Shown here in pieces: positions 5,485 through 50,962 of a stretch of DNA of 64,000 bases. This stretch comes from Lingula anatina (lineage: Eukaryota > Animalia > Brachiopoda), in assembly GCA_051362555.1 (NCBI GenBank), contig CM120646.1, positions 23,188,001 through 23,252,000 of the forward strand, in the 5' to 3' direction. Below the pieces are notes generated by a model, which searched no databases, was not told the origin of the DNA, and saw only the letters and a program-made list of their open reading frames with translations. Every line of letters starts with the position of its first letter. Within the stretch, counting starts at the first letter, position 1. Position numbers and translations under genes: made by a program.

Positions 5485-5914
5485 ATGGGAGACAGGAAAA
5501 TTGCTCAAATTTTAAGGAGAACTTTACGCAAGAACATGGCAGGATGGATGTATGCTGTCATTGTTACGACGCTTTTCATGTGCGTGCATGCACAAGATAC
5601 AACGGCATCATGGAAGCAGATGCCAACGGCTCAAGCAGTGAACAAGGGGGGAGATGTGACATTATCGTGTGAAATAAACAACCCGGGACAGTTTCAGATC
5701 AACGTAATCTGGTCATTTAATGGCAAATCTATCACATTTAACAGGAATCCTTTCAGTCCCTCCACAAGTGATCCAAGGAGGTCAATCGTAGGTGCTAACG
5801 TAGAAACAGACTTCAATCTGAGGATTACAAACTTGAGTTTAGTAGATAATGGCGTATACTCATGTCAAGTGCAGGGGACAGACCTGACAGCTGATGCCAT
5901 GCTCACGGTTGTAG
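5485..5914 (+). CDS. Echinoid-like exon 1: signal peptide + Ig1 (V-type)
   Basis: Hydrophobic WMYAVIVTTLFMCVHA, VTLSC..W..FNLRI..DNGVYSC; acceptor at 5245, donor G|gtaagt, phase 1; alternative start ATG at 5536. Confidence 0.9.
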
Positions 5915-22919: not shown

Positions 22920-22964
<45 letters not shown>

Positions 22965-24652
22965 ATTTACCCAACAACCTGAAAACATCCTATTCCCTCC
23001 TCAAATATTTGAGATTTCTCAAGTTTCAGTTTTAACTAAAGGCGGCACTGGATACTGAGTGAGAAGAAGTCTACAGTGTGATTTGCTGGTGGATACATTG
23101 TGCAGATAAAGCTGTCAGGATCTACTCCACAGCTAAGATACAGGGTTCATCACATCATTTAGATAAGATTCCTCAACAGAGACAGTTTGGGGATCAGAAG
23201 ATTAACTCCTGTATTATCAGCTAGGAGAACTAACTTAGTCTTATAATATTACCAGTGAAGTTGGTTATCCTAGTGGAGACATTTGAAATCTTCGTATTTT
23301 TAGCGGGTATTTCTTTCATTAAAAGGAAAGGTAGAATGGAAACAACAGAGACTGTGAATACTACATCAGGGAGTGAAGGTAAGATCATAAGTATCTGATA
23401 TATCTAGCCTGTTTTATAAGGTAAACATCTGTAACATGTTTCTATTGATACTGGGTTTCAGACTTTTACATTCTGGAGATATGGTCTTGAGTATGAATTA
23501 TTAGCATGGTATTTATTCTAAGTCAGTCAATATTGCAAACTGGAATTATAAGATATCAAGCATCAAAGTGTTAAACTCTTGTTTAGTGTGTTTTTTATTC
23601 TCTCTCTCTCTGAATCTGACAGATCTGACAGAAAGGTTACACTATAGTCCATTATTGAATCTGCCATTATTACAGCAGCATAGTTGATTAAGTAATGTAT
23701 TTAAAGCGAGGCAAGTCGTCAATCCTTACGTTAAATATACTAAAGTGCTGGAACAACACCTGATTTAAGACACCCTAGCCGTTGAAACTGAGGAGTAAAC
23801 AAATACAGTTTACTCCGCTTAACAAATAAGGGCTAGATTTAATGGACGGAGAATGAGGTAAGGGGTACAGAGGTAGAAATAGAAAAGGGATTGAGATATT
23901 TGAACAAGATGACTTGTTATGCTGACAGAATTATGGCAGTGCTTAAAGCAACAAGCTGATGACAGCCCTTTAAAAGTGGCTTTGAGTGAGCTTTTTCTTT
24001 TCAAGTTTATGAAAATTAATTCATTATACGCTTGGCGCAATAAGAAGGAAACTGCAAAATGTTTACTTTCAAAGTTAAAAAAGGATTTAGGTCAAGTGTA
24101 TTTTCTGTTTGAAAACAAAAATTTCAAGATTCTGGAATTATGACTTGCACATTTTACCTTTTCTTTGTTACCCCCATCTAAAACTAGGAAGCTCTTTTAT
24201 GAATTACTTCAATTACTCCATTAAATCTAATTCCATGTCAGCATTATGTCTGTAACAAAGGCCAAGTTGCACATAATATATCAGTAACTGTCCAGATGTA
24301 CAATAATCATGACTAGTCCTGACTCTAGTTCACCAGATTGCCTTTAATTTCATCCTTAAATTGCTCCTTATGATAGATGAGGTTAGAGATCTTAGTCGCA
24401 GATAATGAAAGGTGTCTGGTTCCACAACCCCTGGTTGCAATTTGGGGGTTATTGCAGGCACAATTTTCAATTTTGATTTTCCGCTAATCTTTTTCACCTG
24501 GCCACTTAGTATGAGCATGTAATGAAACATGATGAGGAAGTCATGATACTAGGGTTCTGGTGAAGTGGATTAAAGTAATGTTAACTTGGGTAATGTGTAA
24601 ATAGGCTCCTGGGAGAAGATATAGGAAATAATTAGTTTTTCTGATTGCAACT

Positions 24653-24698
<46 letters not shown>

Positions 24699-27600
24699 CA
24701 TGCTTCATATACCTTTCCTTATAATTATTATATCATGTTTCTATTAGTCATTGAAATTAAATGCCTTTGAAGCTTTTTCATCATCTCAATATCCCCATTA
24801 TGTCAACCATTGGTATCAGATTCTCTATTCCCTTCATCATTAGAGCACATTACAAACTCATCATTGGTTTCTTGTCCCCATCAAATGTCATTATCTCCCA
24901 GCTTTCATATAGTTCATAAAGGTGTGCTAGAGCACAAATCACCTTCAGTTCCATTATGTGGATTTAAGTTGCAGGTTTTGGTAGGGAGATTGCCATCTTT
25001 AATTTAGCCAGGCTAAGATAAGAGAACTGAATCATGACATTAGCTTAAAACTAGTTGAAAGTTTGAAATATGCCCACTGTTTTTAATAAAGTTGATATGG
25101 ATATGAGGAGCGTTGAAGTCAACATTTAATCTTCAACAATAACTGGCAGAGGTAATTTTACAGTGAGCATATATTTAAAGATACAGTTGAAGTTCTTAAA
25201 CAAATTTATATTTATCTGCCTGTATAACATGTCAAAAGTAATCATAACTGATATGAAAATGTTGCGGATAAATGTATTTTTACAACAGACAATGAGATGT
25301 GGAAATAGAATGGATATAAATCAGAGAAGACATGCAATATAATACAGCTTTGTCATATTGCACAATAGAACTGCTATGCTGTTAGTTTTCATTGTACTTG
25401 AAGCTAGTTTTATTCCGTGAATTTTTTTCGTCTATGGATTCAGCTGAAAAGCATGAGCGTTTAGCATTTGGATTTTTTTATTAGTATTTGATTTTTAAAC
25501 ATATTTGCAATGACTTCTTCCTCAAATCGGTATTTATACAGTACATATGACTGTTCAGAAAATATGCTTTCTTAAAAGATGTCAATATTTATCCATCATA
25601 GTCAAGGGCCAAAAACTCACTTGTGGTGAATAATAACAACCTGAAATCAGACAGAAGAAATACAGGGCATGATTGATGGCCAATACAAGCAGTATATTTA
25701 CTTTAATTTCATTAAAACTGCCAATTATTTTTATCATCATTCTAGTGCTCCCAGTGGGGGCAGTACCTGTCCCCTCCCCACATGAGTTATTGCTGTGAGA
25801 CAGGGAGGGTCATGTGATCAGGAAACCCTCAGGGAGAATTGGGCTCGAAGAGAGGGGGCTCCGATGAAGCCATTGTGAATTTTCAAAAGGCTTTATGATT
25901 CATGTATAATTTACCTGACTTGGGGTGGGTCTCTTTAGAAATAGGTGACCCTGTGGGAGTGGGGTTCTTTTCTGAAGCCGTAAATGGAAGAAAATGGGGA
26001 TAATTTTGTGGAAATTATGTGTCATTGGTAGAAAATCTGTCTGCCAAGAAAGAAAGTGAAATGAGTTAATGTTGGAATGTAAGCATTATGTTTTTCTTTC
26101 AAATAAAGTAATGGGATGAAGGGGGGTATTTTTGCAAAGTTCAGGAGCACAGAAATAGCCCTTAATTACTGTAATTAAATTTCCTACTTAATATATCTCA
26201 TATCAGCATATTTTTAGATGAAAATTTACTTCATAATTTGTGAATAGCTGTGCTTTAAGCAATAAGTCACACTTTCCCCAGTACGGCCACTCCCTGTTGT
26301 ACCCCTGTAAGGTCTTACCCCATCTCCCACCATTATCTCCACCTCTCCTCTGAGTCATTATATTACTACCAAGAGAGGCAGACCTCACTGCACACCTCTC
26401 CATACCACCACACACTCACCGAGGAGATGTTTGTATTTTGAAAGCCCAGTGAATAGGAAGCCATTGTGTGGTGTGTTCGGGTGAGCGGGCTGTCATTGAA
26501 AGGGATTCAGCACCACACACAATAGAGGAGGCAACACACTGATGGAGAGATTGGGTGACACACTTTAAATAAGAGGTCTCGAGGTGCTCTATCACCGGTC
26601 AGTTAAGCCTGGACACTGTAGCGAGTGGACTTTATTAGATAGAGTTGTTGTTAGTACAGCTTGACCCCGAGGGTAGGGCTCAGGATAGAAGGTTGTTGTA
26701 TGATATATATTTCCCGCTGAGTGACACAGACAGGAGGCGTGTACGCTACAGAGACACAATATAGACACAGATCTGGATGTATTTATATTGAAAGATAGTC
26801 ATCAGTATAATATTATCAACATACTGCCAGGTGATAGAGCTTTGGATTATTTCTTTAACAGACCCCAGTGGACTGTTTTATTCAGTGGGAATAGAAAGGA
26901 TCCAAAAGTAAGTACTTTTACTATTTTTATCTGTTAAATCACAACAGGGAAGTACCAACAGGCAGGTTTGAAGGTCTCCCTAGTCTCTATATATGTACAG
27001 CCATATTGCCAACATATGGAACATCACAAAAATGTAAAGAGTCGATCTGATATTTTATCACAAAAATTACTAAGTTATTTATATTAGTACACTCTGAGAT
27101 TATGATACTCAAAATTATTTAGTGTCTCATTGTCAGGAAATGTCAGGTATTTTTCTGTATATAGACACACTTCAATATAACCCAATCAGTGGCATCATTA
27201 GCAGGTTTATCATCAGCAGATTAGTATATTATCAGTGGATGTAGAGAGGATTTCATATCAGGAGCTGAATGTTACAAACTGACTACTGTGATAGGTTAAA
27301 TCAACAGTAATCACTCACATCTTGCCCATGGGGTCTTATAAAGGTAGTGTTACCTGTTACTTAGACATAAATTTTAATTAATGTATACCTGGCTAACATT
27401 GATGGGTTTTACATGACAAGGTAGGGATATTGGAGGAGAAAGCAAGCAAATGATAATGTAATCAAGTCTCTTTACGATCCTCAAGTCCTTCATATGTTTT
27501 TAGATTTTTCTATAACTACTAATTTGACAAGCACAATGACAGTATGTGAAAGCTGATGAATTTTGGAGTAAAGGACTCCATTTAGACCAAAAATAGTATT

Positions 27601-30600
27601 TCAGAACACTCATACCCTGTTAAAGACGTACTCAATATACCACACGAACTCATCAGAAGCCCATCTCCCTCCTCAGCTAGAACAACATGGGTGCTAAATG
27701 TTTGCATACCTCTGTAGTCTGTTGGCCAGGAATGTTGTGGCTTGGCTGGAGAGCTGTTTGAACCCTGAGGATCACAGGTTGTTTCTTGGGTATTCCTTGA
27801 TTGAACAGTATAGAAAACTAACCTACATGACAGGGTACTTAATATATGATATATGCAAGCAGAAGCTTGTAGCTATTTTCCAGCTTTTTGTTTTAGCTGG
27901 TTACAAGAAGTAGAGCAGGTGTTGTTTCTTGCAAAAATTCTGAAAAATGTTTCTTGACAGTTAGCACCTTTTATGTTTTTGGCCCCAAGCATTGAATATT
28001 AGATTTGACGCATGTACTAAAATTCCCGACCCTTTGGTGCAATTTGCAAAATGGGACCTTGGTTTCCTTCCCAATTTTAAACAAGTTAAATACACAGGGA
28101 AATAATGTGAGAAACATAAAACACTTAAAAAAGCTAGAAAATTTTAGCTGGCTTCAACAAGTAAAATTGTATCCTCTATTTTAGGGTAAATTGAATAGCA
28201 CTTATCTAATACTATATAGTTGTGTGTGTTTAAGTTGTTACCCTTGTATATATAGTAGTATATTGTAGACTTTAAAACATACCAGCATACACTTAGTAGT
28301 AACTGGTGCATTCGCTACAATGTAAAACCCACTGATTGAAATCAACGGACAGTGACGTTGAGCTTTGTGGTGGTGTTTCAGAACCCCTGAACCCATAAGA
28401 ACAGAGTATTCTCAGGGAATTTGTATGTGAAAGAAAAGATGTATTAGATGGTCTGTGTTGCCTCCATTGTGTGGTGTACTAGTGAATCTCTTGCTTTCAA
28501 AAAGAAGTGAACAGCTCATGTGATGAGATGGTCTATACATTGTATGTTCAATCTTGGATTAAACATCAGTGGAAGCATACTTAAATATTTTACATTCTGC
28601 AAACTCTGCGAAACTGGTGACATTTTGATTTTTCAACATAAATACCTTTAACACCTGCTGCAAGTCAGTGATGAAACTGTTTCCTTAATCTTTCACCTTT
28701 GATTAACAAAACGTAGCTTGTTCCAATGATTAATTTACAAATTGTACAGGTTTTCAAAGTTTGGTATTGCTCTCAACATGTGACATGGCATTTACTAAGA
28801 TGTTTTAAAGATGAGTTAGTTTTTCTAAAAGAGGACAAGGAGAAATTTGACTCATAGACAAGATAAAAAATTATTCATGGTAATGTCATATCAGAAGAAG
28901 GTCAGACAAAGGACTCCATTGGGCACATTTATACTTAGAAGAAGATGAAAAGAAATTTATTTAAAACCTCACACCCCTCCCTTTCTATATTTAATGTTAA
29001 AACCCTGAGTTGTTTGTGTTGAACAGTAACATGTAAGTTGAGGCAGCAGATGCTGTGTGACTGTTGCCAATGTTTAGCTTATATATACATAAGAGATCTG
29101 GCTAAGATCAGCTTGGAGAGATTGGGTAACTGTCTCTTCAAGTAATATAAACCTGCTGGGCAGACATGCAATAGTTAATAGAGTGGATATCCTCTTACAC
29201 AGGTAGCTGCTTTGCTGATTTTATCTTCTTTTTGTGGGATTTTCTTAATATAATTGTTCCCAACACATCTGGGTTTCAAACATTTAAAATTGATGAAAAT
29301 AAAACTTTCCAAATTTAAAAAATAAAGGAATGTGGAAATTATAGAAGGAAAATTGAGGTTAGCATGTGTGGAATGAGCAGTATTTAGTCAGTAAGCTGAG
29401 TGTGAACAAAAATCTGGAGAGACAACAATTCTAATAGTGCTGTAAAAAGAGCAAAAACAGAGTTCAAAGCATCATGAGATTTGAACACTATTCCAAAGCC
29501 TCCAGGCAGAAAATTGAATCCAACTCAAGTGTACAGTGTGTAACAGAGCTGAACAGGAGAGAGAGAATGAGAGAGAGAGAGAGAGAAAGAATGAGAGAGG
29601 GGGGAACTGAGGGAGGTTAGAAAGAGGAAAGGGGGGGGGGCGCTTTGGAGGATGGGTCCACTGATACCCCTCTATGTCACTACCATATTACCTAACATGT
29701 ACCCTGAACATCACAGAGTGGTTTTGATCTCAGACCTCAATCTCAAGTATCTCAAACCCTCTAGTATTTGTCTGATCTGCAGGGGGATGGACTTGATATG
29801 AAGTGCCAGGTGAGAACTCTTATCCCGACAATTACTGTATAGGCTCCCAAACTGAATGTCTTGTGATTTCAGATTCAGCCATTCTTGTACCCTGTACAGA
29901 TGTTTTCAGGAGAATCAACTTTGATTACTCATAAAATTAATTTTCTTGTATAAAGTAAGTAGTTAGAGAGTTTACTATACATCTGTGTGCAGCAGGTAAA
30001 GCCTAGTTGTCTGTTTCATGGAAATGAGAGTGTGGCTGTAGTAGGGAAATCTTTGTGACTGATCTCTCTATACCCAGGATGCTGGGGACAAAGAAAAACT
30101 TATACCATTGTATTCTGTAACTGAACTCTTCAGTTGAAGTTTTTTTTTTGTTTAATTTTTTTTACCTCAAATGACAGGTCATGTGGCATACGTGCCTGTT
30201 CTGCTTGTCAAAAAGACAAAGGAAAATTTAAGTGATGATTTTATACTGTATACTACTTCCATATACTCTTTTTTTTACATCACATTCTCAAGGAATCTTA
30301 ATAATGGCAATGTGATCAGATTGTTGATGCTTGAAGGAAAATCTTTTGTTCTTTTAAGGAAAATTTATTTGTTAAACCATATGGTTAATAATATCTTAAA
30401 TTTTGAGAAAAGGGTTTTTCAAGGAAAAAAAAAAAAGACCAGAGGTATAGTAATAAGAAAATTAATTTATTCATAAGACATCCTGCTACGAGATACCTCC
30501 CCACACTGTGGTCACACCTGTCTTCAGAGGCCAGGACTGAGTCCCCAGTTCTAATTAGTAGGTATAACCAGCAGGGATTATATGTCGCACACTGCTGGCC

Positions 30601-32114
30601 CTGCTTCGGTGTTGTGGTAGCCACCATTGTTGTACTTGTGTCCAACAGAGAGCGGTGGCACAACAATATTATGGACTTTCCCCATAACGCTGTCATATTT
30701 TATTACTACACTTCTCCCCAACTGAGGGGCCTTGTACTGGAAGACTCATTTTATTTTATTGAAATCAGCTGACTTGATCTGCCCTGTTGTGATGATATTT
30801 CAAAAGCTTTGTTCCCAGTGTCACGGCTGATGGCGTTGTCTCATTTGTTTCCATGCTAAAAAGATTCTGAGGTCGTGTTGCTTTTACAAAAACAGTAAAA
30901 AATTTCCTCGGAGGGAAAATGGCCAATTCAGTGCACAGATGGTTAGATCTAAGCTTGTGTTTGTAGAAAACCTAGGGCTATAGTGCTGTGGCCCTTGATA
31001 TTTATGTGGCTACGGATCTTGATATCTCCGGCTTTTCTTCAGATCTCTTAAGTCCGTTGAGTGGCTTGTCTCCGTCTTTGTCCCATAAGACCTCAGGGTT
31101 CCCACTAAGAAGGAACAATGTCAACAAATATAGATACATTGTCAATATATGTAGATACAATGTCAATAAATGTATATACATTGTATCTAAGTACCACAGA
31201 GACCACACACTTGTGGCTGTGGCTGGGATTTGTAAGAAAGAGTGTGTGAGCCAGTCTGGGATTTTCCACCTGAACAAAGCTCTGTATTTACATAACAAAC
31301 CAGTGTCTAGTATGTAAATTATCACCTTATTAAAATATCTCAAGTTCTCCCTGTCAGCTCAGGTGTCCCGTGGACTGGGGGCACCCAGGGAGCAGGCATT
31401 GTTATCACATGAGTAGAGGGAGAGGTAATTAAGCTACTTAAGAGGACATTGGATTGAGTGTTGTAAGCAGTGTGAAGGGTGGTGGTCCCCATATTATCAA
31501 TCTTCGTGAGAAGTTATAAAACTATATATTGTGTTGATAGTTGAAGGGTCTGGATAGGCGAAGTAATATCCAGAAACTAGTATGTATATGTTATGAGTAC
31601 TTATTATTTTATTTATGACTGTGCTTGGTGTTGATTTGTTGTGTTATGGTTTGTGTGATTCTAGTTATATTTAATCTTACTTCCTGTAACTAATCACAAT
31701 CACTGCATTGATATTAAAGTTTGCCTGCTTTAATCTGACTTACTGAACAGTATAACACATGGTTGTCTCTACTCAGGCACCAATGCTACTTTAATATTAC
31801 ATTTTCTATTAATAAAAGGCAAATTTGGGACAACAATATTCAAGCAGCACTTTTCTTCCTTTATTTTATTTTATGTCATTCAGATGTTATTTATTCATAT
31901 TCAAATTAAAAAAAAGATATGAAAACTCAGCATAATTGTCTCTTCTTCTTCCAGTGGACACGACCAAGTCAGACATCCCCATAGAGGTGGTTGGGATCAT
32001 AGCAGGAGTGTGTGGAGGCGTCCTGTTAATTCTGGTCATCATTCTGATTGTGTGTTGCTGCAGAAAGAAGAAGGCAGGAGGTGAGTAGCTTCATGTGAAA
32101 AAGAATTATATATG

Positions 32115-32151
<37 letters not shown>

Positions 32152-35100
32152 TTGCGTGTAAAAATATTGTCTAACTTGAAACAGGAGTAGAACATGAATC
32201 TCATCTTACTGATGAAACGACTGCACTTTCAGTCCAACGTCTGAAATGTCATCCTGAGGCTGTGAAACAATGTGGCTATTTATTAGACATCTCTCTACAT
32301 ACAAGTACCATGTGAAACATAAGGCATATGAAAGTCTGTAGTATGGGATTAAAGCATTGATCTGCATGTACCAGTGCTGTAGTGCATTTACTGTTTTAGA
32401 CTTTGGCTTTGCCACAGGACTATCTTTGAAAAACATGCATCTTAAAACATAGTACACTAAATACTTTAGCTATCAGTAACACATTTATAAACCTTGAACA
32501 CACACACTTTCTAAACAGTATACCATAGTTTATCTTTCTCAACCAGACAACAAAACTCAACAAACACAAGCAATGAACAGCTTAGTGAACATGTTACACT
32601 GTTGCCAGGCAACTGCAGATCACCAAGACAACAGAAACATGTTCCCATCATCTACCAAGAGAAGGCTTAATTTGATATTAGTGATAGAAACCCTTAAGGC
32701 CTCTCAACAATATACAGGAGTGTGTCTCTTTGCTATTAGGGGCATTGCGTGTTACTGAAGACGTATGTTCGTTTTCATTTCCGCACATGATATTTCTTTC
32801 CTCTTAGACAAAATTACCTGGAGATTTTTATGGCAGGTGTATTGATTAAATGTTTATTCTATCTGAATTTTCATTATGAGGGATAAGAGAAGAATTGCTT
32901 GCCTGTATCAGTTTAAAATGCAATGTTGAGAAAAAATATTAACTGATGAATTATGGTTGAAAGTTGTTTCTGTTTCTATCATTTGATCTTGTAGTTGGAC
33001 AGCTTTTTGAGTTATGAATTGACTCATTGCATTTCCATGAATATGAATAACAGGCAATCTTTATATCCAAGTATTTTTACACAGCATAACACTCTAATGT
33101 TTTGTTCACAGTGTATTGAGTCATTTGATCTTGATTAGAATATAACACAGTGTACATATTGTAAAGAAAATTGACATTATGAAAGTATGCTCAACATCAC
33201 CACAGAGTCAACAGTCAGGCTGGATTAAATACAAAACCAAACATTGATCAAATTATCTCATTAATTGTAAGGTGAAACCCATTTAATCTCATGGTGAATA
33301 AAAAAGGACAGCCAATCACTGTACAATGTCTGATTCACAGCTATCCTAATTGAAGCAAGATGTGAACAAGCTACACATTTCAGTTTGTAAATAGTCACAG
33401 GCTCAACGTACAAGTAAAATTTATTAACAACATAGAAAAACCCCTATTTGAAACATTCCAGCCAAAACAATTTAGCTTATCTCAAAATATTTAGGCCTAT
33501 TTTAAAAAAAAGAGTTATTTTCCCACTCCCATAGTTATTTGATTTTTGTGCCCAATGAAACCAGACAACTTTGGCTGCAACAATCATTTCACACATCGTA
33601 CCTGTCACTTGAAATAAGTTGAAGTATTCATCATTATACATACGGGTGCTGTTTTAATCAAAATGTTAATGGCAAGTGATTGATCAGAAGAAACGACTGC
33701 TATTTCACACAAGGTTGCTGGAGTGATACGCTTGTAATCAGACATAAACTTTATCCACAGAACATGGAATTCCACGTTTTTTTAACTCAATTCTAAGGTG
33801 CCTCCCCCCCCCCCCAGGCGGTTAGGTGTTGATAAATGTTCAGAGTTTTTTTTTTTAAACCTGGGCTCATGTCTGTGTACAATATGTGCACTTTGTACCA
33901 TGAGCCTTTTCCAGTCTAAATAACTCAAAGCAGTTATTTGAGAATGAAATATAAGACACGTATTTGAATTTGAAGAAAACATCCGCCTGTAAAGATACAT
34001 GAAAACACAGGAGCATATATAGTGTGTCATATTACAACAAAATCCACATAATTCGCAATAATGTATGGAAACGAGTGACTTATGTGTCCTTTGTGTCCAG
34101 TATTAAGAGTGGAGGTTGGTCAGTAACGACCACAGTCACCTGGGGCACAAGACACACCTCTGTCTGTCACCTTTGGAATGGCTACCTTTAAGGGTTGAAT
34201 TATTTATACCATGAATGTCTTGAGAATGGTGCCACCCATGTGATGATGCTCTGATGACTTTTCCTTCAAATAGAATAAAATACCAGTTATCATAAGCAGT
34301 GCATTTGGATAATTAAGGTATTTCTTTAGGTTTGAGTTCTTTCACGTCCTATGCCATTTTGAAAAATTGGCGAGATGAAACTGTCTTTCCTTTGCAGCAA
34401 TTATATTATCCCTCTTTAAAAGGAAGGTTAAGGATGATGTAGAAAAGATAGTGTACCGCCAAGGGCAACATGTTTTCTGATATAATTACACAGAGAGATG
34501 GTAGTGTGCAGCCACTTTGACTGAGTTTTATTTTCATGCCAACACTGAACTCTAAAAATTAGATGCAACTATCTGTCACACCCGAAGGGCAAGAAAAAAC
34601 TTCAAAAGATCCTTTCCATACATTCACCCTGAATTAGCTCGCGCACCAGTAATTTTAGTGCACATGTTGTATTAAAACAAGGTTCGTTTTCTGTGTCTGT
34701 ACCTGAATTAGAACTTTCCCCTATAATTATGATAAAACCTGTTTTGGATATAAGCTCAGGTGAAAAAGTAAAGGAAATACCAGCACATAATCATGTAGAA
34801 ACACTTTCCAATTAACTTATGTTTACTCTTCAACAAACAAAGGTAATGGCTGCCGTGATGTAGAGGCACCTGGATAAACACCTGTGAAAGTTAATGTGGT
34901 GGGGGTTCAACAATGGAATACAATAGAAAGGTGTGACAAGATTGAACCCTGATTCCCTCAACACATACCAAGTCATTTCCAAAATATGTCATTATAATAT
35001 GTTAATTACCGTGGCACAGGTTCAGTTATTTAAACAAAATAAATGGCTTAAAAGCATTTTGTTGAACACAAAATCAAGACAAACTTGTTGAAAACCATGG

Positions 35101-36998
35101 GACAGGAAGTGCTAGTAGTAGAGGTCACTGAAACCAGAATGGCATTATTTAATGACTTACAGAAATAATAAAAATATAAAAAGAATATGAATGAAGCAGG
35201 CAACTTGGTTGACAATCTGTGATTAGTCACACTGATATCACAGGCAATATGTCATGTATAAATACCGATTGTGACAACAGTGGAGGAAAAATGAGTGTAT
35301 CATGTATGTTGTTAGTCATAGCCTTTTGTTCAGTGTTACCACTGTAATCAGTGATGTGTGAAATTATTATTTATTATAATAGCCATATCACCCTCTGAGG
35401 AAATGATTGTGGTTAGACAGTGAAATATGCGGATGATTGGGATTTGAGTTAGATTGTGAATTTTGTAAAAAAAAATAGAACAATAAATAAAAAGTAGTTT
35501 TTAAAGAAAAGAGGTGCAAATATTTTTAACAAATGATGATAAAGTGACCTATTTGAATTATTATGACCTTGAAATTGTGATTTAATTAGTTTTATTATTA
35601 TTTTACAGAAAAGGGACCTTTGGAGAATGAAAAGTAAGTACTTTTCCCTCATGACAATATCTAACATAAAAAGTCTAATATAAGAGAAGACAACATCAAT
35701 GATTTAAATTGAGTATGCACAATTCCATATACAACTTTGAATTCTAAAATGAATATTTAATAGTAAGTTACTATTGTTTCAAACTTTTACTTTAACATTA
35801 CATGACTTAAATGCATGGAATCTATTAAATTGGCATCAAATACACCATTAACTTAACATTCCTGTTCTGAATAAGTATATTTACCTAATTTCTTTTTATT
35901 CACAGCCGTGGACCTAGGCCTCAGTTTGATCACCATCCACCATCTTATGTCAGTGGTGGAGGCTTTGATAACCCTGCTGTTGACCGTTCTCTGGACGTAG
36001 TGGACTTTGATGACCCAGCCTCCACTGGTGTCTTTGCCACTCACACCTCTGGGATGAATGGAAGTAAGTGGAGCAGGATTGTGTTTGCTGAGATTGTGTC
36101 TGGTTGAGACATGTCTTAGTGCAATATGTACTGGCACTGACTAATAATTTATATTGGTTATAGCTAGATGACTTTCTCTTTGCCCGGTGTTGATTTCTTA
36201 TACCAAAACCAATAAACAGTTTGGAAACAAAGAAATATTATGATTAAGTTGAATCTCATGTGTTAATAAAGTATTAAATATTTAAAAAGACATTCTGCAA
36301 AGTATGTGAAAGATTTTTGGTCATTTTACACCTGAGCGACCTTGCACTAACCCCATGTCCTCGTTTCAGACGTCCAGTATGGGTCGCTAGATAGAAACAA
36401 AATGAGGCCAGCTAACGGACACGTGAACCATGGCAACCACTCTCCAGACTGGCAGAAGCCGCCCCCGTATACCCCCGACACCTCCTATGAAGTACAGAAT
36501 GCTTTTAATAATGGCTTGGATGAACATGAGATGAACAGGAGAAATATGGAAAGATCAGGTATGTGATTATAACTGGCTAATTGTCTTTTAAAAAATAAAA
36601 CATTCACTTGTAGGTAGTGCTGTCAAGTGAAAAGATAGGTCCTCATATTAAATTACATAAGATTGGCCATATATAAAGTGATGTATTTCCAATGTAAAAA
36701 ACATTTTGTAGAGTAAAATGTGTATTGATTGTATCCTATTTACTTTCAGTACCAATTACTTCATAGTTAAACCAGAGGCATATATGATGATACATATTAT
36801 AATATCTGTATTGTTCTTTTGGCAGGTCATCCATATTACAACATGCAGAACATGCCAAACAAGTCCCCTCTCATCCATCCGGGCATGAATGGCATACAGA
36901 AGCCGGACGGCATGTCTGTGAGGAGCGGCCATGAAAGTGGATATTCAACGCCAGATCCAAATAAACCTAAAAAGGTCATATATGAAGTCATTGTATAA
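5485..36998 (+). CDS. Echinoid/Fred-like Ig-superfamily cell adhesion receptor (7 Ig, 2 FN3-like, TM, PDZ-binding tail); 18 coding exons, 3441 nt, 1146 aa
   Basis: All exons below have GT/AG boundaries with compatible phases and join into one open frame; domain count and the C-terminus ESGYSTPDPNKPKKVIYEVIV resemble Drosophila Echinoid (ends EIIV) as I recall it. Confidence 0.85.
6545..6801. mobile_element. Fully palindromic MITE, PIF/Harbinger (Tourist-like), 257 bp
   Basis: Arms ggcttcgttcacatgcaatgtc... / ...gacattgcatgtgaatgaagcc are inverted over nearly the whole length; TTA target duplication at 6542-6544 and 6802-6804. Confidence 0.9.
12143..12454 (+). CDS. Echinoid-like exon 2: Ig2
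   Basis: FNCSSFGGNPPPTISWFR...ADNGKEFACRVSN; polypyrimidine AG acceptor, gtgagt donor, phase 1-1. Confidence 0.9.
12801..12938 (+). CDS. Echinoid-like exon 3: Ig3 N-half
   Basis: FAPVVNFGPYNPLILREGATEQVACTVEANPEVTSVEWLINGVSIG; ttctag| and |gtaagt. Confidence 0.85.
13355..13471 (+). CDS. Echinoid-like exon 4: Ig3 C-half
   Basis: NTRPVRLLDPVRLTDRGQHTCIARNIIGSSNATLTLDVQ; ttctag| and |gtgagt. Confidence 0.85.
13701..13988 (+). CDS. Echinoid-like exon 5: Ig4
   Basis: VNLTCSVRANPP..W..AGMYRCTAKN; tttcag| and |gtaagt. Confidence 0.9.
14260..14520 (+). CDS. Echinoid-like exon 6: Ig5
   Basis: INLKCTVGDKGIPEAQLFW...DDNGSYRCTPKNKLG; tatcag| and |gtgagt. Confidence 0.9.
14693..14923 (+). CDS. Echinoid-like exon 7: Ig6 N-part
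   Basis: LACRARGKPAPNIEWLKNG...NVTGYLEFR; tttcag| and |gtaggg. Confidence 0.85.
15201..15326 (+). CDS. Echinoid-like exon 8: Ig6 C-part
   Basis: IQVDDTANYTCLGSN...SVELLVR; gtccag| and |gtaagt. Confidence 0.85.
15606..15896 (+). CDS. Echinoid-like exon 9: Ig7
   Basis: ASLVCQSQAYPAVTFRW...STLTI..DLGNYSCIATNPVG; ctacag| and |gtaagt. Confidence 0.9.
16111..16287 (+). CDS. Echinoid-like exon 10: FN3 N-part
   Basis: QPDAPTNLRVRENTWDSVLLEWTPGFNGGYDQTF; taccag| and |gtaagt. Confidence 0.9.
16550..16645 (+). CDS. Echinoid-like exon 11: FN3 C-part
   Basis: GLFPDTSYTFQVYGKNALKAGDYS..VRT; ttccag| and |gtgaga. Confidence 0.9.
16927..17208 (+). CDS. Echinoid-like exon 12: membrane-proximal divergent FN3-like domain
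   Basis: YCIRVEIEK...W....C...LRVALCLTSRPEVCG; tttcag| and |gtgagt, phase 1-1. Confidence 0.8.
17668..17688 (+). CDS. Candidate 21-nt frame-preserving microexon (VLTPPPS)
   Basis: Long T-rich tract then tttgtag|, strong CAG|gtaaga donor, phase 1-1. Confidence 0.6.
22922..22962. repeat. (GA)n microsatellite
   Basis: Direct reading. Confidence 0.95.
23336..23378 (+). CDS. Candidate alternative first coding exon (METTETVNTTSGSE) of a short echinoid-like isoform
   Basis: agaATGg start context, AAG|gtaaga donor in phase 1 matching the TM exon at 31955. Confidence 0.5.
24657..24695. repeat. (CT)n microsatellite
   Basis: Direct reading. Confidence 0.95.
26601..26907 (+). other. Candidate alternative first exon whose last A forms ATG with the TM exon
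   Basis: Inr-like TCAGTT at 26599-26604, donor ccaaaa|gtaagt at 26908; the junction reads aaaA|TGGACACG in frame; 5' boundary is a guess. Confidence 0.4.
31955..32080 (+). CDS. Echinoid-like TM exon
   Basis: VDTTKSDIPIEVVGIIAGVCGGVLLILVIILIVCCCRKKKAG; hydrophobic span followed by CCC and a basic stop-transfer; ttccag| and |gtgagt. Confidence 0.9.
32117..32150. repeat. (TG)n microsatellite just downstream of the TM-exon donor
   Basis: Direct reading. Confidence 0.95.
35609..35633 (+). CDS. Echinoid-like 25-nt cytoplasmic microexon (EKGPLENEN)
   Basis: ttttacag| and |gtaagt; converts phase 1 to phase 2, which is needed to join the TM exon to 35906. Confidence 0.8.
35906..36063 (+). CDS. Echinoid-like cytoplasmic exon
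   Basis: RGPRPQFDHHPPSYVSGGGFDNPAVDRSLD...; tcacag| and |gtaagt, phase 2-1. Confidence 0.85.
36370..36558 (+). CDS. Echinoid-like cytoplasmic exon with PPPY motif
   Basis: NVQYGSLDR...WQKPPPYTPDTSYE...; tttcag| and |gtatgt. Confidence 0.85.
36826..36998 (+). CDS. Echinoid-like last coding exon with PDZ-binding C-terminus
   Basis: GHPYYNM...ESGYSTPDPNKPKKVIYEVIV-TAA. Confidence 0.9.
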
Positions 36999-38767
36999 CG
37001 TCCACACTGCTGTTGTTGTCAACCTCATCATCTTCATTAAGTGCCATCTACCATTGTGGTTATTGTTATCCACTTCATTGCCATGGTAACTGTATCATAT
37101 CACCATGGTGACCGTTGTCGTGACTTTTGTTGCCTCGGCAATTGTTATTGTTACTACAGTGAATACTGTAAAATCTGATGACCAAGAGATCTTGAGATCT
37201 CTACAATCTCAGTGCCTGAAAGTTGTATGAAATGTGTCATACCTTTTCTGTATTCTTTCTACATACTACAGTCAGTTCAGTGTTGCATACAAGCTCATTG
37301 TGGTTACTATGGCTACTGTAACCAAAGACAACCAGCATGTCTGTGTATTCTTCACACTGTTGCATGTTGATGTTGTAAACAAAATGATTTTTTTTTCTGG
37401 AAAAATTCCAGATGTTTTTTTGCCACTGAATATTTGACTGCTATTTTGACAGTTCCAAACTCTGACATTGTCAGATATTTTACTGTATATTCTCATCAAA
37501 AGGACAATTATTAAGAATAGTAACTGTATTAAGAAAGAAAATATGTACTATGACACATCAGTACAGATGGCTCAAGATGTACTGGAGTAAAAGCGTGCCA
37601 CAGAATTCAGCACATATTTTTTTCTTCACAAATGAAAGTGATGGTCAACAGAGAGAGCTGAAAAATTAAAGGAACATTATGTCCAGTTGAGGAGAGAGAG
37701 AGTTAAGGAAAACATATGATCAGTGACAAGTTAAAGTATTCCTGACTGACAGTTATATTCAACATTCTATATTTGAAACTCAACTATGTATTATAATGGC
37801 CTTAAAGGTGTACATGTTTGTACTATTAATGTTACTGCCAATATGATTTTGTAAGTGTATATAAATGTATATTTTGTTTGTATATTCTTATCATTGAAGG
37901 AGAGTAGGATATATATTATAAGTTTTTAGTGTAGATTATTATTTGTGGTTTTACATTGCACATATTTTGAACTGAATGGTTGCTGTCACTATTTACTTGA
38001 AGGATTGTCTTCCAATTTCCTGCTTAAGCAGGATCGCTTTTTTTAAATGAATTACCTGGCCAATGTTTAATATGATGAAAATTATTTAACTTCAGAATAG
38101 TGGTATATTATGACTTGTGGAAGCTGAGACTCTGAGTTTATACCAAGTGAAAATGTCTCTTATAGGTTTGACTTGAAATGATGGTGCTTTATATAGTGTC
38201 ACTTACTTCCCCAAGGTTTTAAACCTGAGAATTTTTACTTGTTTATCATCAGTCCTTAGAGCTCTAGAGAAGATAGGACCAAATCATCCTGATATTTCTG
38301 ACTGAAAAGTTGGCATTTGCTAGTGGCTTGACATAGATAAATGAACTTATGGTGCTATGAGGACTATTAAATGAGAAATTAAACCTAATTCATAGATATA
38401 TTGCTTGGTCCTGAAAGATTTGACTTCTGTTCTTATTTGCTATTGTGACACAACCACAAAACAAAGTGTCTGGCTCGAAAAATTATTTGTTTTTATAAAT
38501 TATGTGGCAGGCAGTGTTTTTAATGATCTCAATTCATTGTGAAGTCAGAAGTCACTGAGCACCATTTAAGACGGTCCCTCCTATAACTAACTGTAGAAAC
38601 AAAACGAAGTCCCTTTACTGTTTGAGATTATAGTAGGTTAAAGGTAATGTTTTAGTGTTATCTTACCATATCTGACTTTTATACAATTGTATGGCTTGCA
38701 GCAAGCACTATTTTCGTAAATTTAGGTATGAGCCTATGATATATCTAATAACATTATTTTAGATGCT

Positions 38768-38850
38768 AAGTAACGATAAGGTTAATGGTGTCGTTTTATA
38801 AATGACAAAGTAACGATAAGGTTAAAGGTGTCGTTTTATAAGTGACAAAG
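38768..38850. repeat. Two-copy 40-bp tandem duplication in the presumed 3' UTR
   Basis: aagtaacgataaggttaa(t/a)ggtgtcgttttataa(a/g)tgaca x2. Confidence 0.85.
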
Positions 38851-39100
38851 GAGAACACTGTTGACCTTGGTGTAAGACGAAGGAAGACATTCCAATAATG
38901 TGACAGTAATGATCTGTCACTGAAGAAATGATTTGTTTTACAACAAGTCTAATGCTGCTGTAGAAGTAGAATATTTTGCTAGTTTAGAGCCGGCCATGAC
39001 GTCACCTACCCCACCACGTGCACTCGTCTATATAGTTGTGAAGTGTTTAATACATCTTGTGTCAAGTCACCACGCGTTTGTATGAACAGAAAGTTTTATA

Positions 39101-39106
39101 AATAAA
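39101..39106 (+). terminator. Candidate polyadenylation signal of the canonical echinoid-like mRNA
   Basis: AATAAA followed by GT-rich sequence about 2.1 kb after the stop codon. Confidence 0.4.
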
Positions 39107-40456
39107 CAAAGTGTTGTTATTATATGTACAGAAAAGTCTTCTGTGTTTCAGTTGATATGAATGAAAAATTGTCATGAATATTAAATGATCCACGCGGCGT
39201 TGGCTAGAATTTGAAAACGCAAAACAAAAATATCTGAAAATTTATTATGGAAAGCTTCGTGGATGATGACATTTTTGTCATACCTCGACTATCCTAACTA
39301 TATTCTCATTTTTGAAAGTGATTTTTTGCACCATAGCTGGAGTTTAATAGCATAACGCTAGTTTTATCCGAAAAATTCCACCAGAGATTCTCAACGATCA
39401 CTACAGTATGGGAAGGGGGTGACAATTATTATTATTTTTTATACAGCACGTGATAGTCTCAAACAAAAAAATAGAGATAAATGTTTTTACTTTCTCTCGC
39501 GCTCATATTTCTAAATATGGGACAAGATTCCACAAACATTAGTATTACTTAGAGTCCAGAAGTCAAGTTGACATTTGAGTTGGAAGTATTTCAAGCCAAA
39601 ACGACGACCAAAGATAACTGATAAAATTGAAATTACAATCCTCCAAACATGTAACTTGGTATTTACGCAAACCAGCTGTAGTAAAGCAACGAAGGAGAGA
39701 AGCTGACACACCAAACCGAAGCCGTGTTTCCTCCTTGATCATGAATTCCGACTGTCTCACAGCAACTCCTGATGGATTTGAAACCATAGGAGGATGGTGC
39801 TTCATTTATCATACCATGGTGTATAATCCACCTCTGAAATGCACCCTTCCTTTTGAAACTAGATATAGTTGTTTTAATCGTCTCTCTTTGTGTTAGTCTT
39901 TTAGTCCTTATATTATGTTAATATTATTCTTTTTTCTGCTAGATTGTGTTATTATTTTGATGCATGGAATAAGCAGCTTGCCGTTAGATAGCCAAGAAAA
40001 ATCAGTCGTTGTTCATATAAAAAGTAAAACATCAGCTGTCCACTTTTGTCCCATGTCTTGTGGTGCTCTGAGTTTGTATGTTGTATTTAAGCCTTATTTT
40101 CATATTCAACTTTCAAAGAAACTTCACGCAGATTTTTCTTGGCTTCAATATTGTTATGGTCTCTCTTCCACGCATGCTCCAATGTGATGTCACTGCCGTG
40201 AAAGTGTATTGGTAAGTAGAACGGTAAATTTTGAAGATGATATTTCGTTTTTTTATGATAAAAATCATTCATTTAAATCATGGCACACTAAGTTAAATCA
40301 AAGTACAGTTTTGTACATGAAATGAAACAAAGTACGTCTCCGCAGTAATCATAAGGCAAGGAAAATTACGCATGAAAACATAAAATAAAATGTGCTTAAA
40401 GTAAGGTTACAATAGTAACATTAATTATAAATGTTTTTTCTTTTCTTTTCCTCCAG

Positions 40457-43400
40457 GCGGCGACACTCCCACTCCATTACGACCAATCAAAACCAGGTAG
40501 AAACACCGCGTCTCCGCTAAAACAAGAAATACCTTTTGTTCCGAATAAGTCGACCACACTTCCAGCAAAACTTCACAAGCACAAGGTCTCGACATTGCCA
40601 AAGAAGGACCTGGCACATTTAAAGACGATGGGGCACGTGTACTGCGATGATTTCGCGCCATTTGCCCACAGCCCGCCTGGACACACGTGTGGCCTCCCCT
40701 GTTGCCGCGAGGAGATGAGGGTTCGTATAAAGAAGGACCCAAGAGGCATGCCGAAATGTTTTTCTGCTCCAATAACCAAGGACATACCCGAGCAGAACTT
40801 CACCCTGACGCGCCGTTTGAAACAAATCAAGAGTATGAATGGAAACTTTATCAAATTGCCTGGACCGACGGATGCCCGTCCTGGTCCCTCATTGCCCCCC
40901 ACGAATTTGAACATAAATGACCCCAGTTCAAGCAGTGGACATCGCCATCATCCGAGTGGACAAGGTATTTCTAAGATAATCATTAAGCTTGACCACCCAA
41001 CTGATGAAGGTGAAACGTCTGACTTTGAAGAGGACAAGACAAAGGAAAGGAGAACTCGGAGACACGTGTCCTTTGCCAACGAGTTGGAGGTCCACCTCAG
41101 ACCCAGTAGCCTTTCCTTCCAGCCGGCTCACTACGGCAGCTTTGGGTCCCTGCCCTCAAAGTATCAGGCCAGAATGCGCACCGGCCTCCCACTCGCCTTT
41201 AGACAGAAAGAACACATCTCTCAGTATGAAGAAAACGAAGATGTTTACGACATTGAACGTTTCCATAGTGACTGGAATATAAACAGTCCAGCAGATATGT
41301 GGTCGAAGGAGGCGAGCGCCGTGGAGGCGTGGGAGGTGGACAGGAATGAGCTCCTCAGGGACACACAGATCAGCCGAACTGCCAGTTTCCGCCGTGAGCT
41401 GCGCCAGGTCAACTCGTCTAACCGTCCCCTCCACCTACAGCAGTCCAGAATGAGTGGCCGAACCAAGGTGCAAGAGGTACATCCCATGAAGAAGGCAAGG
41501 GTTGTTCCCTTTGAGAAGCCAAATAACGGGGCAGCTGCTCCACCGAATGAGCAAAACGCGACTCCCTCTAAATTCTTTAGCAAAGGAAAGGGAGGCCTTT
41601 TTTCTAAAATTCCAATCAAAAAGAGGGAGCCATCGGGTCAATCAGCATGTCAAAATGAAGCAGAGGATAGCGCGAAATCCAACGTGCCGCACAGGAATAC
41701 CAAAACGCAAAGCGAAGTGGAGGTGACATTGAGAGAAGAGAGCAAGAACACCATTAGTGCTGAAAAGGGAGCGTGTGTTGAAGATGAGCAGTGCTCTGGG
41801 GTTTATGAAAATGAAACCAACAAGTCACACAGTTTACCAGTCAGTGTTTTGAGACACGCTGTCAATGCCACCTATGGCGTCCAGCCTCCTCAAGATGATG
41901 ACGTCATCCCATCCAAACCAGTCAATGTGGTAAGACCGAAGCATCTCCCAGTTGCTTCTACCGTGAAATGTCTGTCAGATACAGCGCCGGAGGTCCAGAC
42001 TTCAGTTCAAGATGGCGGACACGTACCACGTTTACCAGCTGGAGCAACACCCACGCCCTTTCTGTTCAAACCAGCTCGTGCACAGCTCCCTATCGACCCA
42101 TCAAGGAAGAGCTTGCAAACACACGAGGAGCAAAAGTCGCAGCAATCAATAGATCTGATCCATGAAGAAGAAAACAACAGTTCCATGGTGCCCGCTTTTC
42201 TACCACAGCAAACTTCCAAAGGTGAACAAGAAACGGGAAGACTGGCCCAAGATCAACTAGTGAGGAATAACCTCATTAAATCAGGCATTAAAACAGACAT
42301 GGAATTGTCAGCCCCCAAACCTGAAAGCTCTGTGTATGAAAATTTTGGGATTGATCATTTGAATATCCATCAACAAACAGCCGAGAATGGATCTAAACGC
42401 TTATTAGCAGGTGCTCAACCAACGCCCATTTTAATGGAGGTGCCCCATAAAAGAGAACACGAACTTGTAGCAGCAGGTGCCCACGATTCAATTGCTCCTT
42501 TGCCTGATCTACCTTCACCCCCATCGCCCCCTCTCAGCCCTCCCACTTCACCTATCCTTAACCTACCTCTACCCCCTCCACCTCCAGGATTTTGTGACGT
42601 CATCCCCCCCTCACCCCCACCACGGCCTCCAATGCCACTCCAGCCAGTGTGTACACCACAACCAGCACCTCCTCCTCCTCCTCCTCTCCCTCCACCCCCA
42701 CCTCCATTAGTCCCCGTGTTTAATTCATTTAATCGAAAACCTCCCGCTCAAGGCGAGGGTGCCCAGAGACAGAAGTCGCCCACACTGCTAAAAGGCCTCA
42801 GGCGACCAGCAGATGCCACGCTTCACGACCAACTTCTCGTGGAACTTAAATCGTTTAAATCTCTGAGAAGAATCAGTCAATCAGCCACGACGGACAGTGA
42901 GGAAGGCGGTGACAAGAAACGAGAGTACAATGTAACACGTGACAGACCCGGGGCGGCACGTACAGCTCATGGTGCTGTCAATCATGCAGATTTCCCTCCC
43001 CCACCTCCTCCTCTAAGTGAAAGACCTACTACAGACGAACATTTGCAAAGAGATACGAGTCCAGACAACCTCTACTCCGACATTGACGACTACATGTACC
43101 ACGTACACAGTGGGATATCTGGAAGTACAACTAACGTGGCAAGCTCAACAGAGACACCAGATGATATATACGACCATCTTGAAGATATGGATTCAAGCAA
43201 CGTGTACGGCATGTCTCAGGCTGCAAATGCATCTCAAGCAAAAGATAATAATGTCACAGAGTTTAGCACACATGACTCAACAAAGAGTGGACTTCACAAC
43301 GGCTTTGATGGAAAAGAAAACACAGACATGGATGCAACAACTAGAATTTTGCACAACATGGGGCTGCTTCACTCTAAGGAAAATAACTTTCAGTTTGAGG

Positions 43401-43720
43401 ATTTTGAAAACGAAAGTAAAACCAAGTCTGAGCGCCGAGGTAGCAGTCATTTTCCAGTCGAAGCTAACGTTCGTATACAAAGTGACTTTACTTCACCCAG
43501 CAAAGGGCAGCTTGTGGCACCAATACAGGAAGGTAGACATGGTGCTAACAAGGATGACAGGGAGCCACACGTAAGTGGCGCCCCTGGTGGTGATGGTCAG
43601 AACAAACCTGTTAATCACAGCGCTCCTGCTACAATGGCCACGCCCACTGATTCTCAACATTATTACTGTGCCTTGGATTTCGAGAGACAGAGCAGTAAAG
43701 AAGAGCCGATAATGGTGTAG
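40457..43720 (+). CDS. Large terminal exon/ORF (1087 aa): disordered, proline-rich, with WH2-like, FPPPP, RVxF and tyrosine motifs; alternative echinoid tail or separate gene
   Basis: Open for 3264 nt from a strong acceptor ttttcttttcctccag| (phase 0); the ORF-track start at 40595 is TTG, first ATG is at 40628; AATAAA at 43975. Confidence 0.8.
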   Translation, partial: AATLPLHYDQSKPGRNTASPLKQEIPFVPNKSTTLPAKLHKHKVSTLPKKDLAHLKTMGHVYCDDFAPFAHSPPGHTCGLPCCREEMRVRIKKDPRGMPKCFSAPITKDIPEQNFTLTRRLKQIKSMNGNFIKLPGPTDARPGPSLPPTNLNINDPSSSSGHRHHPSGQGISKIIIKLDHPTDEGETSDFEEDKTKERRTRRHVSFANELEVHLRPSSLSFQPAHYGSFGSLPSKYQARMRTGLPLAFRQKEHISQYEENEDVYDIERFHSDWNINSPADMWSKEASAVEAWEVDRNELLRDTQISRTASFRRELRQVNSSNRPLHLQQSRMSGRTKVQEVHPMKKARVVPFEKPNNGAAAPPNEQNATPSKFFSKGKGGLFSKIPIKKREPSGQSACQNEAEDSAKSNVPHRNTKTQSEVEVTLREESKNTISAEKGACVEDEQCSGVYENETNKSHSLPVSVLRHAVNATYGVQPPQDDDVIPSKPVNVVRPKHLPVASTVKCLSDTAPEVQTSVQDGGHVPRLPAGATPTPFLFKPARAQLPIDPSRKSLQTHEEQKSQQSIDLIHEEENNSSMVPAFLPQQTSKGEQETGRLAQDQLVRNNLIKSGIKTDMELSAPKPESSVYENFGIDHLNIHQQTAENGSKRLLAGAQPTPILMEVPHKREHELVAAGAHDSIAPLPDLPSPPSPPLSPPTSPILNLPLPPPPPGFCDVIPPSPPPRPPMPLQPVCTPQPAPPPPPPLPPPPPPLVPVFNSFNRKPPAQGEGAQRQKSPTLLKGLRRPADATLHDQLLVELKSFKSLRRISQSATTDSEEGGDKKREYNVTRDRPGAARTAHGAVNHADFPPPPPPLSERPTTDEHLQRDTSPDNLYSDIDDYMYHVHSGISGSTTNVASSTETPDDIYDHLEDMDSSNVYGMSQAANASQAKDNNVTEFSTHDSTKSGLHNGFDGKENTDMDATTRILHNMGLLHSKENNFQFEDFENESKTKSERRGSSHFPVEANVRIQSDFTSPSKGQLVAPIQEGRHGANKDDREPHVSGAPGGDGQNKPVNHSAPATMATPTDSQHYYCALDFERQSSKEEPIMV

Positions 43721-43989
43721 AGAAGTTAGATAATTTGAAGATACTCTGGTGTCGTTTTATTTATACGGATATTGCAATTATGCTGTTTGTAAAACGATTT
43801 TGTTACACGTATATACAATCACCAGTTATCATGTTGATGTTGTTTAATAGTAGTAATAATCTGGTTTTAAAAGCTGTTTCAATCTGTAATTCACAAGAAA
43901 CACACAAGAAAACCAACACGTACACATATATAGGTGCATGTAGAGTGTAGCACATTTATGATTATCGGTGAAACGAATAAACTGAAGGA

Positions 43990-44123
43990 CCGTGTAACAG
44001 AAAGACCACCCCCAATTTAGTTGCAATGGTTGGGGTTAGCCTGACCTAAGTGGGTCAAAATCTAGATCGATGCTTACCTGTGCCAATGGATATGAAGGGG
44101 GACTCTCTTTCATGTTACACCGG
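43990..44123. mobile_element. Small MITE-like element with imperfect inverted ends
   Basis: ccgtgtaacagaaagaccaccccc ... gggggactctctttcatgttacaccgg; no TSD seen. Confidence 0.4.
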
Positions 44124-50917: not shown

Positions 50918-50962
50918 CTGGTAAATAGAGGATATATCTTAGATTTGTTAAACCTGATATCA

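Follow-up and report, generated by a model that had tools for sequence, protein, structure and literature searches.

The locus analysed here is a 64,000-nucleotide window of the brachiopod Lingula anatina (assembly GCA_051362555.1, contig CM120646.1, forward-strand positions 23,188,001 to 23,252,000), in which an echinoid-like adhesion receptor gene is followed on the same strand by a long open exon. With moderate confidence, we take this exon (40457-43720) to be a coding last exon that the receptor uses as a rare alternative, joined to it at a weak donor after the residues PKK. A preliminary description had proposed such a tail swap, and all of its coordinates were confirmed: the 3264-nt exon, the acceptor at 40457, the first Met at codon 58, the sequence AAG/GTCATA at 36974/36975 (the slash marks the cut) and a donor at 40212. 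Positions below are those of the window, and the receptor gene comprises the following parts:

5485..36998, plus strand: coding sequence of the echinoid-like receptor, 17 exons and 1139 residues, from our own gene model without an internal stop.
31955..32080, plus strand: transmembrane (TM) exon of the gene model, spliced to 35609; loose read ends before 35607 in the RNA are read as its last bases.
36826..39120, plus strand: dominant last exon with a 2.1-kb 3' untranslated region (UTR), marked by continuous RNA depth to about 39080; use of the internal donor would make it a composite terminal exon.
36975..36998, plus strand: short tail VIYEVIV followed by TAA, resembling IREIIV of Drosophila Echinoid in sequence.
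39101..39106, plus strand: AATAAA at the end of RNA coverage, the putative proximal poly(A) signal from sequence and RNA depth.

Pfam recognizes seven Ig_3 stretches and one fn3 domain in the receptor, while a second FN3-like exon has no Pfam match; a single TM segment follows, and the tail ends in KKVIYEVIV. Database labels on its relatives are nephrin-, hemicentin- or NCAM2-like. By its seven immunoglobulin (Ig) domains with fibronectin type III (FN3), its single TM segment and its hydrophobic C-terminal motif, the gene resembles an echinoid-type Ig cell adhesion molecule. The model equals RefSeq Lingula anatina hemicentin-1 isoform X2 at 1124 of 1139 residues, and its last exon is 100% identical to hemicentin-1 of this species; the window thus represents another Lingula haplotype or assembly than RefSeq. 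A 21-nt micro-exon at 17668-17688 (AG/TTCTCA..TTCAG/GTAAGA) explains why RefSeq isoforms X1 and X2 differ by 7 residues immediately ahead of the TM segment.

Behind the UTR of this gene lie the open exon and its features:

40430..40456, plus strand: acceptor with a strong polypyrimidine tract, ..CCTCCAG/GCGGCG, phase 0 to the open frame, from sequence and scoring; a phase-0 counterpart exists in a metagenome contig, L001.
40457..43720, plus strand: open exon of 3264 nt, 1087 residues and a stop, disordered, with low plus-strand expression, from the open reading frame (ORF), RNA and Pfam.
40628..40630, plus strand: first ATG (Met58), the RefSeq start, at a position unconserved among homologs by sequence comparison.
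40667..40801, plus strand: conserved motif HxPPGHTCGLPCC..C..NF (residues 71-115) with no confident fold, from HMMER and alignment.
42497..42709, plus strand: polyproline tract, specific to Lingula at this scale, from sequence.
42827..42874, plus strand: WH2-like stretch DQLLVELKSFKSLRRI, from a hand pattern alone and without a match to Pfam WH2.
43700..43720, plus strand: hydrophobic C-terminus EEPIMV and stop, where homologs end in P[IV]TLIL and stop.
43976..43981, plus strand: first AATAAA behind the ORF, a putative distal poly(A) signal by sequence.

A Pfam scan of the ORF returned no family at E <= 1, including WH2, Cobl, EH and NHS domains. A PDB sequence search with the conserved-region alignment found no solved relative (best E 0.7), an Atlas feature search with residues 50-200 gave none at 0.9, and AlphaFold on 12 rows of the conserved region yielded no fold (predicted local distance difference 52, predicted template modeling score 0.20). 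Exact look-ups of the ORF, whether begun at the acceptor or at Met58, gave no match. RefSeq lists residues 58-889 as a separate gene, "actin cytoskeleton-regulatory complex protein PAN1-like" (XP_013383942.1). It is identical to the ORF at 818 of 832 residues, and its name likely reflects proline richness alone. Nine of the 14 differences of this allele fall in residues 817-867; together with its early end, this clustering would reflect either allele polymorphism or an assembly error.

The preliminary description had proposed that the tail couples the receptor to actin. The WH2-like stretch and FPPPP are indeed present in Lingula, but WH2-like and [FLW]PPPP/FPPPP patterns occur in this one of 15 tails, and long polyproline in two of 15; an actin link may therefore be a lineage add-on at best, confined to Lingula. 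Cordon-bleu and NHS-like WH2-polyproline regulators are similarly disordered, proline-rich and WH2-like, with Atlas scores of 0.82 (Cobl) and 0.75, values below 0.9 being leads only; they differ in that the ORF has no Pfam match to WH2 or Cobl and that such features are absent from mollusc tails. The tyrosine motifs YYEVL, YYDVI and YYCAL recur in the long tails, and we take them to be possible SH2 docking sites.

The homologs carry most of the argument for a link to the receptor. Searching ORF residues 1-680 against 1.84 billion representatives with HMMER (cut-off E <= 0.001) recovered 14 homologous proteins (best E 1.3e-9), all through residues of about 50-145, with one reaching 207. The block HxPPGHTCGL.CC..C..NF is invariant in 12 aligned rows, the three fused rows described below being left out of this alignment; Dreissena has S for one G. 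The C-terminus P[IV]TLIL is found in 10 of the 14 homologs and in L001, where Lingula has EEPIMV. Splicing had been expected to remove the PDZ ligand of the receptor; with a conserved hydrophobic C-terminus of its own on the long tail, the ligand would instead be swapped.

Homologs with names come from Haliotis asinina, Lottia gigantea, Dreissena polymorpha and Batillaria attramentaria; in these four molluscs (snails, a mussel), as in Lingula, the exon lies behind the receptor. Three of the 14 homologs are fused gene models (Lottia ESO99941, Dreissena KAH3704012 and Batillaria KAK7495224), and in all three the receptor tail ESGYST..PKK runs straight into the exon at PKK, which is precisely the junction that the preliminary description had put forward. 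Two of them align by tblastn to both pieces of the window in order; the receptor part of the Batillaria model falls below the tblastn cut-off, and its ESGYSTGDPNKPKK is visible by eye. The Haliotis asinina protein XP_067674310 is a stand-alone model whose accession adjoins those of the receptor models XP_067674279-95, on a contig of equal size. The search for receptor-tail homologs covered proteins of 99-2000 aa. The PAN1-like protein shares a 90% cluster of four members with receptor isoforms, to which it has no likeness (best E 0.44); a fused Lingula model as the unread fourth member would explain this. A word-based homolog search of the ORF among representatives of 597-1903 and 1904-5000 aa found none, not even the RefSeq protein with its 98% identity; such a search is blind to cluster non-representatives and thus has no bearing on a fused form.

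Homologous DNA was found in L001, a metagenome contig of 4425 bp that is the sole match of the metagenome DNA pattern scan and is too short to reach a receptor. Its phase-0 acceptor, the top-scoring of the 263 AG sites there, opens a frame of 543 aa with the first Met at residue 31 and the end PITLIL. A DNA pattern scan of the viral contig set gave no match, and a scan for the donor region in the genome contig set found none, so that donor DNA comes from Lingula only.

Exon starts were compared in 10 rows, of which two come from DNA, three from gene models and five were read off protein letters; seven of the 14 HMMER hits were omitted. In five of the 10 rows the motif is not preceded by any Met; in the remaining five, a Met stands at residue 10, 22, 24, 31 or 58. 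Five rows were compared pairwise over the stretch ahead of the Met, and 7 of the 10 pairs show conservation at the protein level (P < 0.05, shuffles). A cluster mate of homolog P0034 has Val at the position of its start Met. The 57 stop-free codons before Met58 in Lingula are not beyond chance on their own (P = 0.08, shuffles). A start at an own Met would drop the most conserved motif in half of the rows, which argues for a coding exon further upstream that feeds it in phase 0. The receptor site between Lys and Val (K/V) is the sole candidate feeder that any evidence indicates, although a tiny first exon of its own is conceivable.

These data also bear on a different explanation, which we regard as doubtful but serious: the exon would belong to a separate, weakly expressed gene in conserved tandem position, whose small first exon would be non-coding in Lingula, with a start at Met58, and tiny but coding in molluscs; the fused models would be predictor errors. 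The product would be a disordered adaptor, likely held at the membrane by the Cys cluster and bearing a C-terminal PDZ-type ligand. It accords with the separate models that RefSeq has for Lingula (XP_013383942) and H. asinina and with a conserved motif that begins just past Met58; the absence of Met ahead of the motif in five of 10 rows, the scattered position of the Met elsewhere and the protein-level conservation before it speak against it. The non-coding first exon ending at 40212, which the preliminary description had allowed for, is workable in Lingula but not in the five homologs without a Met before the motif.

Two candidate donors could feed the open exon:

36972..36980, plus strand: candidate internal phase-0 donor AAG/GTCATA (K/V), weak; an equal residue boundary is found in three mollusc gene models.
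40209..40217, plus strand (cut 40211/40212): rival donor TTG/GTAAGT for a non-coding first exon, with a score of 7.4 and at chance rate.

Donor and acceptor matrices were built on just the 16 sites of the receptor gene, so the scores are rough. The acceptor at 40456/40457 stands above chance, with an equally high score at 7 of the 4078 AG sites of the window, and GC content jumps there from 0.34 to 0.47 (0.50 over the whole ORF). As the preliminary description had stated, the regular receptor donors are all of phase 1 or 2 (15 and 1 of the 16 in the 17-exon model), and the K/V donor is indeed weak, scoring -0.3 where the 16 real donors reach 4.1-12.8. Among in-frame GTs of Val codons, 32 of 99 score at least as high. 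Val at this position is conserved across a brachiopod, a gastropod, an annelid and a nemertean, and the GT at 36975 is present because the conserved Val codon forces it. As for the donor at 40212, decoys of its strength occur at 0.94 per kb of intron, 1.2 are expected in that interval, and the ATGs upstream of it (40156, 40174) are in phase 2 and out of frame. For the separate gene, no good coding first exon (ATG plus phase-0 donor) was found upstream of the ORF in either DNA, the best donors scoring 2.4 in the window and 2.3 in L001. Elsewhere in the receptor gene, a 46-nt stretch at 26862-26907, within the 14.7-kb intron before the TM exon, has a fair acceptor (6.3) and a strong donor (10.8); not being a multiple of three, it could be a poison exon or a piece of an internal-promoter transcript.

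Two phase-0 donors of the receptor last exon, 36987 (GAA/GTCATT, YE/V; 2.4) and 36918 (1.6), score above K/V. They leave some room for an exon that is used in both ways, reached from the receptor and from an internal promoter that would yield a soluble form from Met58, or joined at another phase-0 donor such as 36987. Lingula and several homologs do offer a Met, but all three fused mollusc models use the PKK boundary and there is no sign of an internal start, and we consider this combination improbable.

Four of nine available RNA runs (X1, X2, X4 and X7; about 6-25% of each) were mapped on 35400-44600. The receptor tail exons splice as modeled: the 36063-36370 join is carried by 78, 6, 7 and 38 reads in the four runs, and the last four receptor junctions are all seen, three as joints and that of the TM exon as loose ends. 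RNA depth continues past 36974 to about 39080, near the AATAAA at 39101, and then falls to near zero. The short form, which reads through 36974 and ends near 39.1 kb, therefore dominates the transcripts. Reads over the ORF are sparse and in receptor orientation, with a mean depth of 0.54 in X1 and 0.49 in X2 (2.2% and 2.9% of the UTR), none in X4 and traces in two bins in X7. Between the end of the receptor UTR and the ORF (39.1-40.3 kb) there are a few reads, which would suit a separate gene.

Three other features of the coverage were examined. Depth in X1 drops from 31 to 7 between 36918 and 36950, before an AATAAA at 36960 in the coding exon; the drop is absent from X4 and X7 and likely reflects library bias. 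An apparent joint at 38786-38827 was rejected as an intron, as it equals one unit of a 40-bp tandem repeat. The read pile-up at 44025-44065 was likewise rejected as the 3' end of the ORF gene owing to its many different flanks; the short repeat fragment there (44015-44065) is a widespread transcribed element.

The very low depth, zero in X4, and a RefSeq allele 198 residues shorter could also point to a decaying or untranslated relic that is transcribed by read-through only. However, the frame has 1087 open codons, the alleles are 98% identical over 832 aa, and 14 homologs share an invariant Cys/His motif, which makes a relic very improbable.

CpG content changes along the locus as well. The observed/expected ratio is 0.24 in the receptor introns and 0.28 in the UTR, rises to 0.78 past about 39 kb, and is 0.66 in the ORF and 0.6-1.2 downstream overall. 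The step near 39000 is likely the edge of gene-body methylation at the poly(A) site. Although this step would suit a separate gene, the CpG-rich state runs on to 48 kb and thus represents background rather than a promoter island. That the boundary proves a promoter apart from that of the receptor was rejected: a distal exon with little transcription would show such a step too, and the exon in L001 is CpG-poor (0.33).

Several observations weigh against an alternative last exon of the receptor. At the donor, the K/V score is not above chance, being reached by 27% of 3860 GT sites; the site pairs with U1 RNA at five of nine positions, where real donors pair at six to nine, and it is no better than the rejected candidate first-exon donors, scoring below the best of them in both the window and L001. 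All 22 full-length annotated receptor isoforms terminate in the short end KKVIYEV[IV]V, as a separate gene would also predict. They represent seven species (four of Haliotis, plus Lingula, Owenia and Lineus), and 12 of them are from Haliotis, in a cluster whose members were all read. RefSeq has the exon as a separate gene both in Lingula and in H. asinina, and its Lingula allele ends at residue 889 (43121-43123), 198 residues short and without EEPIMV. The fused models are predictions with ab initio signs, two of them flagged as partial; the Dreissena model has an odd insert and the Lottia model begins at the TM exon. Gene predictors often fuse neighboring genes. Furthermore, six of the seven homologs omitted from the exon-start comparison begin with Met 10-22 residues ahead of the motif, and the acceptor phase is circular for the five of 10 rows in which the acceptor was read from protein letters. 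Receptor-type CpG depletion ends near 39 kb, before the ORF. Lastly, none of the four runs lists a joint that leaves 36974 or enters 40457, with 64 reads over 36950; as 0.39 and 0.36 junction reads were expected in X1 and X2, and joints were listed from at least three reads (P < 0.01 for listing the 36974-40457 join at this depth), the depth is too low for the missing junction to give a verdict. The proposed tail swap has gained from the linkage in Lingula and four molluscs, the PKK boundary in three models and the unconserved Met, but not from any junction read.

An alternative last exon of the receptor remains our preferred reading. It builds on the dominant short form, the low same-strand transcription, the phase match and the conserved linkage; the use and regulation of the donor, and all binding, we infer. 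The weak internal donor would mostly be ignored, giving VIYEVIV and the stop, with polyadenylation at 39.1 kb. Whenever polymerase runs on beyond the proximal poly(A) site, splicing could link the weak donor with the strong acceptor across 3482 nt. The 36974-40457 join would give a receptor of 2219 aa, close to the roughly 2200 aa first estimated, from a composite terminal exon in which donor and poly(A) site compete. To judge from the motifs, both forms would retain the conserved ESGYSTPDPNKPKK block, and VIYEVIV, a putative Canoe/afadin-type ligand, would be exchanged for another PDZ-type hydrophobic end. The long disordered tail would add the Cys/His motif and the tyrosine motifs and, in Lingula alone, a polyproline and WH2-like stretch that may couple it to actin.

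Known systems offer partial parallels. The C-terminal IREIIV of Drosophila Echinoid binds the Canoe PDZ domain (10.1101/2021.05.04.442628), and the Echinoid PDZ motif binds both Bazooka and Canoe in a source whose available text mentions neither isoforms nor splicing (10.64898/2026.04.22.720164). Echinoid and the Lingula receptor share seven Ig domains, FN3, TM and a similar hydrophobic end, a likeness by domains and motif rather than by tree; however, our literature searches found no long alternative tail for Echinoid, and binding by the Lingula motif is putative. The composite terminal exon with intronic polyadenylation, of the IgM heavy chain type, is defined in PMC5928244. An unrecognized donor in the last exon, a proximal poly(A) site and a downstream exon that alters the C-terminus are common to both; unlike IgM, both Lingula forms would stay membrane-bound, and the proximal form is dominant and probably older, with use of the donor presumed. 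The closest functional parallel is Protocadherin-15, whose CD1, CD2 and CD3 isoforms differ in their cytoplasmic tails and end in a PDZ-binding motif specific to each tail (PMC7532178; PMC4119359). In Lingula, one adhesion ectodomain would likewise be combined with alternative tails carrying a PDZ-type end each, although Protocadherin-15 is a vertebrate cadherin with proven isoforms. Its tails are encoded by separate last exons rather than through an internal donor.

Beyond the receptor and the open exon, the window contains an 862-aa open frame on the minus strand (48350-50938) with a NACHT domain (E 7e-21) and a weak NLRC4 HD2 match, an NLR-like gene. A palindromic element resembling a miniature inverted-repeat transposable element is present in two copies (6541-6805 and 2222-2386) with near-perfect inverted arms of 67 nt, the first flanked by a 101-nt duplication. 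Tandem repeats occupy 52371-56103 and 63374-64000, including a 297-bp array (four copies, 96%) that contains units of 39/40 bp, as well as a 75-bp satellite.

Literature searches for an echinoid tail isoform, the lophotrochozoan receptor and the HxPPGHTCGL motif found no description, with supplements and most subscription papers outside the search. On a broader view, whose chances we rate as even, brachiopods and molluscs would have kept since the Cambrian a switch between splicing and polyadenylation, located exactly where a conserved phospho-type motif gives way to the PDZ ligand of their echinoid-like junction receptor. It would turn a Canoe/afadin-anchored receptor into one with a signaling tail of 400-1100 residues, carrying the Cys/His motif, tyrosine docking motifs and another PDZ ligand, to which Lingula would have added a WH2/polyproline actin module. 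Either way the motif is undescribed, without a Pfam, PDB or paper match, and even a separate gene would represent a new conserved family locked behind the receptor. If the exon does belong to the receptor, current annotations divide one gene in two, and the fly-type short-tailed Canoe/afadin partner would have a second, unannotated form in shell-bearing lophotrochozoans.

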